Counted from the first letter of the stretch, positions 3,208-9,832 are shown. The stretch: DNA of 64,000 nucleotides from Bacilli bacterium (GCA_051872335.1 JBJEDT010000041.1:147-64146); one strand, 5' to 3'. Notes: generated from the letters alone by a model not told the origin. Translations and numbers: made by a program.

Positions 3208-3377
3208 TTGTTAGTAGTTTTCTATATTAAATTAAATTGAGTGCAAGGATTAATAGCACAATAGGGGATGTGCAAAATATCTCTAGGGGTGTTCACTTTT
3301 TTGTTAGGGGTGTGCAAAAAAAGGCCAATTTGCACACTGTATCAAAAAGGTCTAACATTCACATATTGAATGAAATA
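3208..3377. repeat. Copy A1 of a modular intergenic repeat (long form)
   Basis: About 170 nt align at roughly 75-80% with 9665-9832 (shared TTGTTAGTAGTTTTCTAT..ATTAAATTAAAT.GAG.GCAAGGATTAATA...). It contains TAGGGGATGTGCAAAA (3262), TAGGGGTGTTCAC (3284) and TAGGGGTGTGCAAAA (3305), spaced 22 and 21 nt, followed by a tail TTGCACACTGTATCAAAAAGGTCTAACATTCACATATTGAATGAAATA. It starts 4 nt after the stop of the CPCC gene. Confidence 0.85.
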
Positions 3378-3591
3378 TCCCCCCAAATTTTACCCAAATA
3401 TGGTAAGATGATATGGAGGATTTTTTATATAAAACTAACTCGTAAGCGTAAATGATTTCCAGACTCAAACTATCGAACGCTTTGAAATATCCTCTTAGGT
3501 AGGAAAGTTTTTTATGCAAAGAAATGTATATAATGAAAGTACTCTTTTATAAGTAATGAATAGTCTTTATCAAAAAAGGTGGTATGTTATT

Positions 3592-4647
3592 ATGAGTATA
3601 ATGGAAGAACAAGAACTAAAAAATAAATATCTTCTTGTTACTGAAGAATTTGAAGGCTTGCAAATTGTTAAATTGACCACAGATAATATAGCTAGAGTTG
3701 AAGCTATGATTATGACAGATTCTGGATATGCTAAATCTGGTGATATTAATGCTGGACCTACATACAAGAAGAATGGTGAAGAAAAATATTCTGGCTCAAC
3801 AGCATATTGGATGACAAAACTAAAATATGCTCTTGAAAATAATTGTGATGATGATTTAAGAACTATTATAAGCCATGCTGTTAATGCTATTGATAAAGAA
3901 AACAGTACTCATATTAATTCAGATGGCGTTGGAAGAAAACAACTTACAAATAGAATCTTGGCAAAAGTAAAATCATTAAAAGAAATATTGTTAAATGTAG
4001 ATAGTGGATTAAAATTCATAGATGAAATTGCAACTATTACTAGTGACGTAGATGCTAAACATAAAGCTAGAACTAATTTATCTTTTGCTAGTAAATTTGC
4101 TCATTATGCTTGCTTTTACTTGTTTGATGAAGATGATCCAAGAAGAGATAACTTTTCCATTTATGACAATGTATTAAACAAAGCGCTTCCTATCTACATA
4201 AAAAAATATAATCTTGATGGATATAATCCGAATAGCTATTTAAGTTACTATAAGTGCATTGGTGAGATTATTAAAGCTTGTGGAGAAGATTTATCAAGAA
4301 ATGTATTTGACCATTTGATTTGGTATTATTACAAGGCAAGACTTAATTCGATAAAACTGAATAAAGTGAAAAATACTGCCGCTAAAACAAGAGAAAAATC
4401 ATCTACTTGCTTTAATACTGCTGATATTTATGAATATATCTTATCAATTAAAGAAAAAGAGAAGAATCAAGGTAAATGTGAGATTACATTAATTGCTAGA
4501 GATATAGCACGCTATTTTGGTAGATATGATAGAATGGTTTCTATTTGTAGTGCTATGAGAAAAGCTATGAATCCAGGAGATGTTATAGTTTATACTCCAC
4601 CAAAAGGAAACTCTACTACATTGGAGATAAAATATTACTTAAAATAG
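3592..4647 (+). CDS. Orphan 351-aa cytoplasmic protein: helical N-terminal part plus small C-terminal module, function unknown
   Basis: I moved the start to ATG 3592 (AAAGGTGG 8 nt upstream). Segment 'SFASKFAHYACFYLF..(n)..FSIYDNVL..(n)..SRNVFDHLIWYYYK' recalls uncharacterised OGG-fold-like families, but I cannot verify this. It has its own downstream repeat and hairpin. Confidence 0.6.
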   Translation: MSIMEEQELKNKYLLVTEEFEGLQIVKLTTDNIARVEAMIMTDSGYAKSGDINAGPTYKKNGEEKYSGSTAYWMTKLKYALENNCDDDLRTIISHAVNAIDKENSTHINSDGVGRKQLTNRILAKVKSLKEILLNVDSGLKFIDEIATITSDVDAKHKARTNLSFASKFAHYACFYLFDEDDPRRDNFSIYDNVLNKALPIYIKKYNLDGYNPNSYLSYYKCIGEIIKACGEDLSRNVFDHLIWYYYKARLNSIKLNKVKNTAAKTREKSSTCFNTADIYEYILSIKEKEKNQGKCEITLIARDIARYFGRYDRMVSICSAMRKAMNPGDVIVYTPPKGNSTTLEIKYYLK

Positions 4648-4735
4648 GTATGCCAAAATTCCAAAAGGTATGCCAAGAAATTTAGGGATATGCCAAATTG
4701 TATTAAAATTACTCTAATAACACATATTGTATAAT
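4645..4735. repeat. Copy B1 of the modular intergenic repeat (short form)
   Basis: TAGGTATGCCAAAA (4645), AAGGTATGCCAAGA (4665) and TAGGGATATGCCAAA (4684) place TATGCC at 4649/4669/4689, an exact 20-nt phasing. The tail TTGTATTAAAATTACTCTAATAACACATATTG is near-identical to 6903-6934. The first repeat includes the TAG stop of the upstream gene. Confidence 0.85.
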
Positions 4736-4740
4736 TTAGG

Positions 4741-4770
4741 TGATACGTATAATCGTATTGCTTTTTTTTC
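4741..4770 (+). terminator. Weak Rho-independent terminator candidate
   Basis: Short stem tgatacg/cgtattg (with G-U pairs) followed by T8. Confidence 0.4.
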
Positions 4771-5035
4771 TTACTCATATAGCATTTTTAACTTATTTAA
4801 ATATGTTAACGATTTGAAATGATGGTCAATTTGCATTTTTAGTTCTTTCGATTATTTGCCTAACGGACAGAGTGAAGAAAGTATGACCCTAAAAGGAAAT
4901 GATTTAAAAATATTTTCTTAATTTATATTATTTGAATAAATATTACTGTTTTCATGTAAATGGCAGAAGCTTTATTATTAATAGAATTAAATATTTTTTC
5001 TATTATTATAATTATATTTGCTGATGTAACACTTC

Positions 5036-7685: not shown

Positions 7686-7740
7686 ATTATTCTCTTTCCT
7701 TTTAACTTATTAATTTCAACACTTTTAAATCATCTGTTGG

Positions 7741-7769
7741 TTGTAAAATCAACACTTGTTGATTATAAT
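7741..7769 (+). promoter_or_regulatory. Promoter TTGTAA-17-TATAAT with a 14-bp palindrome (putative TetR operator) in the spacer
   Basis: TTGTAA lies at 7741-7746 and TATAAT at 7764-7769. The palindrome TCAACA-CT-TGTTGA lies at 7749-7762. A related TCAACACTT sits about 35 nt upstream. Confidence 0.6.
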
Positions 7770-7805
7770 TTAATTGAAAACATTATGTTTGTCAAGGAGT
7801 TTAGC

Positions 7806-9317
7806 ATGGAATTTTTTTGGTGTTTTATTGCAGCATTATTAGCGGGTATTGGTACAGGACTTGCTGGATTATCTGCTGCAACTGTGATGGTGCCTATTAT
7901 GATAGTCCTTTGCCCAACCTTTGCTGGTGAAGTTGGTGCTTATCATGCTACGGCTATTGCATTAGCATCTGATGTTTTAGGTTCTGCATTTACTGCAGGT
8001 GTTTATATAAAACATAAGAATATTGATTTGAAACATAGTTGGATTATGTTAGTTTGCATCATTACAATGTGCATTATAGGTAGTTATGTTGCATATTATG
8101 TTGGTAATGTTGTTTTAGGAAGCTTTTCTTTAATATTATGTATTGGTATTGGTATACGTTTTTTATTAAAACCAGATACACAGCGAAATGTAACAATAGA
8201 AGATAAAACAAGGTTTAATTGGAAGGAAATACTTATTTCTATTTTTTTCGGATTGACTATAGGTTTTGGAACAGGCTTTGTTGGATCAGGCGGAGGAATG
8301 ATGATGCTTGTGGTCTTTACTGCCTTTTTAGGGATGAGTAGAAAAAAAGCGGTAGGAACTAGTACATTTATTATGACATTTACTGCATTGATTGCTTTTG
8401 TAAGTCATTCTATTATTGATTCAACAATTATTTTTGCTGATTGGCCGATTTTAGTTTTGTGTATAATTACAGAAACATGTGCATCTATCATAGCTGCTCA
8501 ATTTGCTAATAAGGTTAATAATAGAATCGTTGGATTAGTAACAGGAGCAGTACTTACAATACTTGGAATAACTATGTTGTGTATTAAATATTGGCAAAAT
8601 ATTGTTACCTCATCAATTCCATTAGCTGTCCTTCAATGCTTAGGTTGGTATCTATTATTTATTATTGGTATTTTAATTATCATTTTAGTTTTGCGTTATT
8701 GCTTTAAAATGCCTAGCGAAGTAGCGAGAAAAATATTACAATTTCCAGCAATGTTATCGGTGATTTTTATGTTAATTGTTTCAAATGATTGGATAGTTAC
8801 AATTATTTGTGCAGTGATTTTTTGCATTATGGTTTATCCTATTTTATGTATTCTTGAAAAATGGGAAAATTATTCTACTCTTTTTATGGAACGTAGAAGA
8901 GGAGAAGTGAAAAAAAGTTTATTATTCTTATTTGGAACTCATATTATTTTAGTTGCAATTTGCTGTGGGATATTCAATAAAGCTTATATAGTAATTACTT
9001 CAATTCTAGTATGGGGTGTAGCTGATACTGCAGCTGCTTTAGTAGGAAAAAAATTTGGGAAGCATCATATTTCATTTAAATATGCCGATAGTAATAAAAC
9101 CTGGGAAGGTACTATTGCAATGGCCTTAACTTCATTTATAACTGGAGCCATTGTATTGTTACTAGTAAGTCCTCTAACATGGTGGCAGTGTATAATTTTT
9201 TCATTAGTAGCATGCCCATTTTCCGCTATTTCTGAGCTTTATTCACATAATGGTAATGATACAATAAGTGTACCACTTGCTGTAGCAGTTGTTTTGACAA
9301 TTCTTAGTTTTTTATAA
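7806..9317 (+). CDS. Fusion membrane protein: N-terminal TSUP (TauE/SafE, DUF81) anion-exporter domain plus C-terminal CTP_transf_1-like polyprenol/diacylglycerol kinase-type domain
   Basis: The N-terminal half has 'AGIGTGLAGLSAATVMVPIM' and 'GFGTGFVGSGGGMMMLVVF..GMSRKKAVGTSTF', which are TSUP repeats. The C-terminal part has 'WGVADTAAALVGKKFGKH....NKTWEGTIAM', the signature of the dolichol/phytol kinase and CDP-diglyceride synthase superfamily. The start is at ATG 7806 after AAGGAG. Confidence 0.7.
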   Translation: MEFFWCFIAALLAGIGTGLAGLSAATVMVPIMIVLCPTFAGEVGAYHATAIALASDVLGSAFTAGVYIKHKNIDLKHSWIMLVCIITMCIIGSYVAYYVGNVVLGSFSLILCIGIGIRFLLKPDTQRNVTIEDKTRFNWKEILISIFFGLTIGFGTGFVGSGGGMMMLVVFTAFLGMSRKKAVGTSTFIMTFTALIAFVSHSIIDSTIIFADWPILVLCIITETCASIIAAQFANKVNNRIVGLVTGAVLTILGITMLCIKYWQNIVTSSIPLAVLQCLGWYLLFIIGILIIILVLRYCFKMPSEVARKILQFPAMLSVIFMLIVSNDWIVTIICAVIFCIMVYPILCILEKWENYSTLFMERRRGEVKKSLLFLFGTHIILVAICCGIFNKAYIVITSILVWGVADTAAALVGKKFGKHHISFKYADSNKTWEGTIAMALTSFITGAIVLLLVSPLTWWQCIIFSLVACPFSAISELYSHNGNDTISVPLAVAVVLTILSFL

Positions 9318-9664
9318 TATTAGATTCAATAAAAAACACATAATGTAATGGGAATTTATGTATCTAAAATACAATTATAATATTTCTAACAATTATAAAT
9401 TTTTAGTTAGATATTTTAGAATTTAATGAAAAAATGTTAATTTTGAATTATATAAGTTTGAAATATATAAAGAAATTTTTACTGAAGAAGATATTGAAGA
9501 TTATGATAAGTATAAAATTTTAAAAGATTTATATCATCAATTGTTTTCAATATTATTTATCGGTGAAATGTTGTTAATTGAAGCCTTATAAAAAAGAAAA
9601 CAAGAATGTAACCCATTTATGTAAAAAAATAATAAATGATGTTTATAAGAAAAGTTTATAATCA

Positions 9665-9832
9665 TTGTTAGTAGTTTTCTATTATTAAATTAAATCGAGC
9701 GCAAGGATTAATATCATAACATGGGGTGAGCAAAATATTTCTAGGATGTGTATTTTTTCACAAGGTGTGTAAGAAAATGGATTATTTTTGCATACTATAT
9801 CAAAATTGGATAACAAACATAGTAATGAAATA
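9665..9832. repeat. Copy A2 of the modular intergenic repeat (long form)
   Basis: It aligns with 3208-3377. Repeats are TGGGGTGAGCAAAATAT (9722), TAGGATGTGTAT (9742) and AAGGTGTGTAAGAAAA (9762), followed by the tail TTTTTGCATACTATATCAAAATTGGATAACAAACATAGTAATGAAATA. Confidence 0.85.

Follow-up and report, generated by a model that had tools for sequence, protein, structure and literature searches.

Phased repeat modules in a Bacilli genome as probable attachment scars of ssrA-targeting elements with paired large serine recombinases

Repeat modules in the window

The subject of this study is a repeated module found in a stretch of 64,000 nucleotides from a Bacilli bacterium (GCA_051872335.1, JBJEDT010000041.1:147-64146); this whole stretch is referred to as the window. 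The region is AT-rich (~27% G+C) and holds mostly orphan genes on the plus strand. Four copies of the module, designated A, B1, B2 and D, lie in one orientation among accessory genes, and two of them (B2 and D) are decayed. Each copy comprises an array of short direct repeats, hereafter units, followed by a conserved tail. An earlier note on this DNA had described such repeats at four loci, all of which are present. In the list below the tail is called the P arm and the DNA beyond it the B' arm, after the phage-side and host-side halves of an attachment (att) site, for reasons given in the next section; L numbers denote loci in other genomes and metagenomes.

2290-3204, plus strand: gene for a CPCC-domain protein
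3190-3261, plus strand: 5' extension of A, homologous only to D; it covers the final 15 nt of the CPCC-domain open reading frame (ORF)
3262-3337, plus strand: array of A, with TAGGGGATGTGCAAAA at 3262, TAGGGGTGTTCAC at 3284, TAGGGGTGTGCAAAAA at 3305 and a degenerate CAATTTGCACAC at 3326
3339-3363, plus strand: P arm of A, GTATCAA + 16 nt + CA, a half-site ending at the crossover dinucleotide
3364-3377, plus strand: host-side (B') remnant of A, TATTGAATGAAATA, which fits the ssrA downstream consensus TATTGAA(A/T)G (L229, L238, L137, L149)
3592-4647, plus strand: 351-aa cargo gene, with its own conserved promoter near 3530, downstream of A
4645-4698, plus strand: array of B1, three (T/A)AGGTATGCCAA(A/G)A units at 4645, 4665 and 4684, 20 nt apart
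4700-4724, plus strand: P arm of B1, GTATTAA + 16 nt + CA
4725-4772, plus strand: B' arm of B1 and ssrA-type terminator, with GTGATAC at 4740-4746 and a hairpin at 4738-4763, then a T run
5096-6037, plus strand: gene for a Fic/Doc protein
6190-6861, plus strand: 223-aa cargo gene, homologous to the 212-aa gene of intact elements (71% nucleotide identity)
6871-6903, plus strand: array of B2, two decayed units, GTGGTAAGCCAAA and ATGGTTATGTCAAA
6906-6930, plus strand: P arm of B2, GTATTAA + 16 nt + CA
7060-7076, plus strand: possible fragment of an A/D-type unit, AAGGGTGTGTAAGAAGA, resembling unit 3 of D, AAGG(G)TGTGTAAGAA
Between B2 and D: a TetR gene and, divergent from it, a gene for a TauE-cytidylyltransferase fusion
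9647-9720, plus strand: 5' extension of D, homologous to A 3190-3261
9721-9795, plus strand: array of D, decayed ATGGGGTGAGCAAAA, TAGGATGTGTATTT and CAAGGTGTGTAAGAAAA and a degenerate fourth unit
9797-9819, plus strand: decayed P arm of D, ATATCAA + 14 nt + CA, with a mutated heptamer and a 2-nt deletion
9820-9832, plus strand: B'-like remnant of D, TAGTAATGAAATA, a decayed form of the B' consensus
9904-10086: gene for a 60-aa Asn/Pro-rich protein

A (3190-3377) and D (9647-9832) share 76% identity over 191 nt with gaps (blastn E 5e-33), B1 (4645-4735) and B2 (6871-6936) share 82% identity across 61 nt, and all four copies can be aligned with two copies from other organisms. A profile hidden Markov model trained solely on 15 modules of other organisms was run on the 64-kb window and recovered B1 (E 2.3e-9), A (E 1.1e-4) and B2 (E 1.2e-4), with no further window match at E<=10; D is too decayed for this profile and is tied to A by blastn. 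Across the whole window, counts of single loose motifs show no excess over chance, and the evidence therefore consists of clustering and of conservation across other genomes. Blastn of A against plasmid and phage collections gave no match, and the exact A/D 18-mer found only chance matches inside coding sequences when genome contigs were searched.

Successive units lie 21/21 nt apart in A and 20/20 nt apart in both B1 and D, in line with the 20-22 nt, and exactly 20 in B1, reported in the earlier note; the TAG stop codon of the 351-aa gene does form the start of unit 1 in B1. The same note had three copies beginning 0-10 nt past a stop codon. This is so for B1 and for B2, which starts 10 nt after TGA 6859-6861, but not for A, whose first repeat lies 58 nt past the stop codon where A/D homology begins; D has no ORF directly upstream. 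The unit type of A also occurs in L136 and the L013 family, and that of B1 in L137, L141, L142 and L119. The A-type copy of L136 is without the 5' extension shared by A and D.

Relatives and attachment-site geometry

The module was found in many relatives from other genomes, and in a number of these two genes for large serine recombinases (LSRs) lie upstream of it; both further copies and a co-occurring recombinase had been proposed as things to look for. Pattern scans retrieved an A-type copy in a metagenome-assembled genome (MAG) of Anaeroplasmatales (L136), a B-type copy in a Clostridiales MAG (L119) and three B-type copies in metagenomes (L137, L141, L142). The module is present as well in IMG/VR viral contigs whose LSRs are related: L149 has five copies of GGGGTGCGTGA, L151 three of GGGGTACGAA, L158 four of GCGCTTACGAT, and L160 three tandem modules. 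A unit-based scan added L161, L164-L166, L176 and L181. The ~80 matches of a first IMG/VR pattern scan (ATTTTAATACAAT..RCAYA) were all discarded as chance.

Ten loci (L013-L022) carry a 75%-identical homologue of the 351-aa protein as the last gene of an element that is 98-99% identical among them. Its genes encode, in order, a 56-aa ORF, a helix-turn-helix (HTH) protein, a SHOCT_2 protein, LSRs of 434 and 530 aa, a 212-aa protein and a 355-aa protein. Past the last stop codon, 2-5 tandem GGGGTGTGCA units are followed by TTGTATTAAAATGGTTCATCTTTGCCA, the common end of the element, beyond which there are six unlike flanks, while four contigs break there. Comparison of this near-identical element across the six flanks places its boundary directly after ...GCCA, at the central dinucleotide. 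Longer flanks of L013-type elements hold prophage tail genes upstream, which identifies the element as a prophage that has integrase genes and cargo at its right end.

The order across relatives is Prophage_tail ... C1 (HTH/Zn-ribbon), C2 (SHOCT_2), LSR-A (~435 aa), LSR-B (~528 aa), cargo and module. The two LSR genes lie 0-5 kb upstream of the module (L013-L020, L137, L149, L151, L160, L164, L165, L176, L181), and the 0-5 kb of cargo between them and the module is variable, comprising for example the 212+355-aa pair, GmrSD/HEC-05 or restriction-modification genes. L137 is laid out like L013, with LSRs just 46-49% identical and a cargo of a 112-aa protein and a GmrSD/HEC-05 nuclease; L141 has a restriction-modification system before the module. 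Minimal elements consist only of C5, C1, C2, LSR-A and LSR-B, followed by the module without cargo. The attachment of the module to gene 3' ends, proposed from the window, is seen at B1 and B2 but is no rule: in L137, L136, L164 and L165 a terminator stands between the last gene and the module, and minimal elements have no cargo gene to which it could be attached. The apparent link comes from the position of the cargo, which fills the space from the recombinase genes to the element's right end.

The conserved tail is the phage-side half (P arm) of an LSR attachment site, joined to host ssrA-terminator sequence in an attR-type arrangement. In at least 13 independent junctions (L010, L013, L014, L016, L021, L022, L119, L137, L141, L142, L149, L151 and L160), the P-arm heptamer, GTAT(C/T)A(A/C), lies exactly 34 nt from TTGATA(C/A/G), the heptamer of the flank, with CA at the center. 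Such an arrangement, in which either side of a central dinucleotide has its half-site motif at a set distance, matches the dyad geometry expected of an LSR site. In the window, the exact arm GTATYAA-N16-CA is present in A, B1 and B2, and B'-like flanks lie behind A, D and B1; in B1, GTGATAC lies 33 nt from the P-arm heptamer, one nucleotide short.

The host half derives from ssrA, the gene for transfer-messenger RNA (tmRNA). In L010 the tmRNA gene ends in ...CTCCACCA, followed by 16 nt and TTGATAC. Among the genome matches listed, CTCCACCA-N16-TTGATACA lies exactly at tmRNA 3' ends called by ARAGORN in 36 of 120, and the ssrA matches span Clostridia, Oscillospiraceae, Ruminococcus, Acholeplasmatales, Anaeroplasmataceae, Izemoplasmatales and others. 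It follows from these matches that attB consists of the ssrA 3' end and the 5' arm of its terminator, that the CCA of tmRNA supplies the crossover CA as its last two bases, and that the hairpin after B1 is ssrA-terminator sequence. TTGATACA is a conserved feature of the ssrA terminator that doubles as the host half of the attachment site. Islands homologous to that of the window adjoin tmRNA (L010), tRNA-Ala (L011) and tRNA-Asn (L023).

Two further observations concern these half-sites. At L188-L307 (for example L229 and L238), TTGATACA(A/G)T stands exactly 16 nt past the tmRNA CCA in at least 36 ssrA genes from very diverse Bacillota. On the minus strand of L158, at ~8750-8920 of a 47.7-kb viral contig, four copies of GCGCT(T/A/G)ACGAT precede GTATCAA-N16-CA-N16-GTAATAC, with a convergent LSR gene on the far side; the site resembles an attP that is still intact, its array confined to one side.

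Taken together, these data make it likely that each copy is the right-hand (attR-side) end of an ssrA-targeting temperate phage or integrative element that uses a tandem LSR pair. For the window copies themselves, an origin as att scars of LSR phages is quite probable. Tblastn of the 64-kb window found no homologue of LSR-A, LSR-B, C1 or C2, and we use the word scar because LSR genes adjoin the module in relatives but are absent here. Judging from the geometry and from the adjacent genes, the P arm would be bound by the LSR pair during integration into and excision from ssrA.

A stack of attR-type scars is the simplest reading of the window copies. Four or five such ends would have been left by successive integrations in one orientation, the phage bodies then being lost, and the genes between the scars (CPCC, 351-aa, Fic and 223-aa, TetR and transporter) would be retained attR-proximal cargo. 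Module stacks also occur elsewhere beside the ssrA terminator, with three modules in L160 (16400-16720) and two in L142 (minus strand, ~1330-1530). These modules are complete, arranged head to tail with no cargo between them, and have unlike unit sequences; in L160, solely the first has the unit type of the closest LSR relative, L149. In the L160 and L142 stacks the phage bodies would have been lost and array and P arm kept.

The repeat array, its explanations and the cargo

Across 22 modules, the unit-to-unit distance is 10 nt (13 cases), 11 nt (3), 17 nt (1), 19 nt (2), 20 nt (19), 21 nt (9) or 23 nt (2). The last unit begins 10-13 nt before the P-arm heptamer, except in A-type copies, where it begins 31-33 nt before it and the space between is taken up by a degenerate unit. 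Units at roughly 10.5 or 21 nt share one helical face, and these distances put array and recombinase half-site in the same helical register. Modules contain 1-5 units, the number ranging from 2 to 5 even among near-identical elements, and at least six unit sequences share the one architecture (GGGTGTGCA, GGTATGCCAAA, GGGGTACGAA, GGGGTGCGTGA, GGGGTGCTAA and GCGCTTACGAT). The array stands on one side only, with none on the host side and none on the P'-like side of L158. Within the 5-17 kb examined per element no units were found outside the array, and the paired-unit pattern occurs once in the 49.5-kb L160/L163 viral contig.

Two repeats near ssrA may be further unit types or relics. One, on the minus strand of L270, consists of four copies of CTACTAGA(A/T)AAA(C/T)G at ~20 nt, about 150-250 nt downstream of tmRNA; the other, at L272:3850-3930, consists of two phased copies of GTA(C/T)ACGTCAAAA just downstream of ssrA.

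Three suggestions of the earlier note are borne out: that the phased direct repeats are of a protein-binding type, that they form part of site-specific recombination sites, and that they mark off accessory-gene units. Among the functions that had been offered, neither iterons nor transposase ends find support, and our best guess is that the repeats are putative recombination accessory sites. More specifically, the array would recruit a sequence-specific protein beside the outer edge of the P arm and so modulate recombination or its direction. We offer this predicted role tentatively, at odds well short of even. The outer edge of the P arm is where known serine integrases have their zinc-ribbon and coiled-coil region, the part that sets directionality. 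A bolder and more doubtful version holds that the arrays are true arm-type sites: a loaded protein, sharing a helical face with the recombinase subunit bound to the P arm, would control whether or in which direction the dual LSRs recombine, and the interchangeable units would be specificity modules. If true, arm-type arrays might account for the accumulation of att scars beside ssrA, and this would be the first LSR system needing DNA outside the ~50-bp core.

The candidate binder of the array is probably the product of a host gene or of a phage gene outside the part described here. C1, with its HTH and Zn ribbon, is always present, but its identity pattern does not track unit type, nor do those of C2 and both LSRs. 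The 351-aa protein had been considered as the binder on account of its winged-helix-like C domain and of a gene that abuts modules in four lineages; it was rejected since homologues occur without a module in L023-L026 and the module is kept with other cargo (L137, L141) or with none (L164, L165, L181). Two ideas about the units themselves were also dropped. A G-quadruplex formed by the GGGG tracts of the L013 family is at odds with B-type units, which have no G runs, and with A-type loops of 18 nt; a likeness of GGGGTACGAA to the tmRNA T arm GGGGTTCGAA does not fit other unit types.

Several points weigh against an integrase site with an accessory array. Recombination at the site is predicted from sequence. 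A tRNA/tmRNA scan of the 64-kb window found none, which places ssrA outside the window, and the source contig (64,399 nt) reaches only about 400 nt beyond it. Seven related LSR loci extend 3 kb or more past the gene, and three of these showed no module of this type; furthermore, no attL, left end or inverted tail copy was seen in the relative loci examined. With respect to the array, neither C1, C2, LSR-A and LSR-B nor the inner P-arm sequence co-varies with unit type, and a view of the units as degenerate recombinase heptamers is not supported, the resemblance being weak for the B type (p ~0.02) and no better than chance for the other types (0.2-0.99). Serine integrases use small sites (<50 bp), and their directionality factors bind the integrase rather than DNA, according to the available text of two papers (PMC1470463, PMC5814800).

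If the array were an operator for a phage regulator (an immunity-type repressor or early protein encoded elsewhere, perhaps just across attP at the left end), it would have a regulatory job, for example to silence transcriptional read-in or read-out where the prophage ends or to tie excision to induction, and would play no architectural part in recombination. In favor of an operator, unit sequences change while their architecture stays the same, with no link to the recombination genes or inner P arm, as happens in immunity, incompatibility or other specificity modules; units are confined to the array in 5-17 kb per element; and asymmetric direct-repeat operators are known in phage phi105. The single occurrence of the paired pattern in the L160/L163 contig, however, leaves no room for another array at a switch region, although a scan of this kind would miss single units, and the strict register between array and P arm is needless for a mere operator. 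We give an operator a minor but real chance. An iteron-type replication origin or a centromere-like partition site of the excised element is improbable. The spacing of 20-21 nt, the 2-5 copies whose number varies between near-identical elements, the specificity variants and the AT-rich stretch adjoining the last unit would all suit iterons, but this stretch is explained as the recombinase half-site, and no Rep, ParA or ParB-like gene is consistently nearby. The conserved neighbors are C1, C2 and the LSRs only, minimal elements holding C5, C1, C2, LSR-A and LSR-B; the 351-aa protein has no initiator fold match and is absent from most module-bearing elements.

The remaining explanations concern transcription, cassette mobility and RNA. 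Phased sites of PhoB/OmpR, LytTR or SARP type could form an activator-dependent promoter with its core in the tail and a start near CACATATTG: the repeats are direct and phased, the last one sits where a -35 element would be expected, conservation stops close to where transcription would begin, and the minus-strand T(G/A)ATACAAT resembles an extended -10. Against such a promoter, there is no consistent plus-strand -10, a promoter scan of the window gave 62 sites versus 53 +/- 6 in shuffles, which is not above chance, and a terminator lies 15-50 nt past the module in B1, L119, L137, L141 and the L013 family. The tail also has an exact 34-nt dyad partner in host DNA, and the 351-aa gene already has its own conserved promoter downstream of A; we consider the promoter quite improbable. 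Independently mobile cassettes like those with attC, each gene and its element being captured and excised as a unit, had been the analogy drawn in the earlier note. One orientation throughout, one module per unit, and one cargo gene found beside modules of different types (B1 versus L013, L011, L010) would agree with it. The sites, however, are not palindromic attC but attR-type hybrids of a P arm and a host B' arm, that is, half an LSR site joined to the ssrA terminator; no integrase of any kind is present in the 64 kb, no circular cassette junctions were seen, and intact elements have one module, at the element end only. Cassette autonomy is thereby largely refuted and retains only a very slim chance. 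Finally, modules between stop codon and terminator in B1, L011 and the L013 family would allow an RNA element in the 3' untranslated region of the upstream gene. We abandoned this idea since some relatives (L137, L136, L164, L165) have a terminator ahead of the module; moreover, an Rfam scan of the window returned no family and unit spacing is quantised in DNA helical turns, so that we find an RNA element hardly credible.

The genes beside the putative scars would correspond to the cargo of intact elements. There, the 212-aa gene comes before the 355-aa gene; the window has the two homologues apart, each followed by its own module (the 351-aa gene by B1 and the 223-aa gene by B2). The 351-aa protein has many homologues and in relatives is the last cargo gene before the module. 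It combines a PF27257-type all-alpha N domain with a winged-helix-like C domain; sequence and fold searches against the PDB found no significant match for it, and no function could be assigned to the window cargo with NCBIfam, PHROGs or PADLOC. The C domain of the 351-aa protein has a free-standing homologue of 112 aa, encoded at L137:6612-6950 and adjoining the GmrSD/HEC-05 nuclease gene, and the partners of the family vary (a mini-RNase III gene in L011, the 212-aa protein in L013). The 351-aa cargo protein may be a new defence-associated module.

Three observations stand apart from the module. The NPNN-repeat, Asn/Pro/His-rich small protein encoded just after D (9904-10086) has a counterpart at L013:8530-8652 with 82% nucleotide identity, located ahead of another pair of LSR genes in that locus. 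Upstream of the prophage's 56-aa gene, L013:1130-1350 and L016:1140-1350 contain a TATAAT-like promoter, then ~150 nt that are rich in G+C and apparently structured, then a terminator; the structured stretch is possibly a small RNA or riboregulator. The largest direct-repeat families of the window are three paralogous MalK-type ABC ATPase genes in sugar-transporter loci (16966-44145), which are ordinary.

Significance and comparison with known systems

For dual-LSR phages from Bacillota of the gut and rumen, the analysis defines an attP/attB pair to the nucleotide, namely ATTGTATCAA-N16-CA-N16-TTGATACAAT, located at the CCA of tmRNA. Serine integrases are prized for genome engineering since they are thought to need just short sites and no accessory DNA. 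A widespread natural family in which attP is always accompanied by a phased, specificity-variable array would imply either an additional level of control or a new type of regulatory device located where prophages end. Furthermore, islands that look like cassettes without a recombinase would be explained as stacks of attR scars that keep phage cargo, some of it defence genes.

The core of the site is like those of phage large serine integrases (phiC31, Bxb1, A118/LI, TP901-1, SPbeta). As in these, a site of ~50 bp is formed of two inverted half-sites, a central dinucleotide common to attP and attB marks the element boundary, no target duplication is made, and the integrase genes adjoin. Unlike them, the elements described here have two tandem LSR genes with two conserved small genes (HTH/Zn-ribbon and SHOCT_2), target the last bases of ssrA, and carry a phased direct-repeat array that abuts the outer edge of the P arm. 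To the extent that abstracts represent the literature, the site is an ordinary LSR attachment site by design and the array is the undescribed part. We know of no described LSR system with a phased, specificity-variable direct-repeat array fused to an attP arm.

The stacking of modules is reminiscent of ssrA-targeted islands. In one example of these, the vcr islands of Dehalococcoides, we know of no phased arrays. Their lineage and recombinases are unrelated to those here, as far as the available text of the report on them goes (PMC3146451).

Layout and LSR size suggest a parallel with the staphylococcal cassette chromosome (SCC). SCCmec uses the ccrAB pair of LSRs (~450 and 540 aa), inserts at the 3' end of rlmH (orfX) in staphylococci and carries variable cargo, and composite SCC islands grow by tandem accretion, leaving recombinase-less remnants between directly repeated att scars. 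Paired LSRs, the 3' end of a conserved gene, cargo and stacked recombinase-less remnants are all found here as well. Unlike SCC, the present elements have another target and host range, are carried by prophages and leave scars with repeat arrays.

Phased direct repeats right beside a crossover site, on one side of it, are known to give architecture and direction to other systems: the X1/X1.5/X2 sites of lambda Xis, the Cox boxes of P2, the Apl sites of 186, res II/III of Tn3, and DR1/DR2 in the internal resolution site (IRS) of Tn4430. The array described here is likewise placed directly beside the core and on one arm only. Those systems, however, employ tyrosine recombinases or small resolvases with known binders, whereas LSRs are involved here. 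Integron attC sites also lie behind cargo genes and delimit units in one orientation. An attC site is an imperfect palindrome, folded from a single strand and used by a tyrosine integrase; the module shows none of these traits, its repeats being direct and its only dyad the recombinase core.

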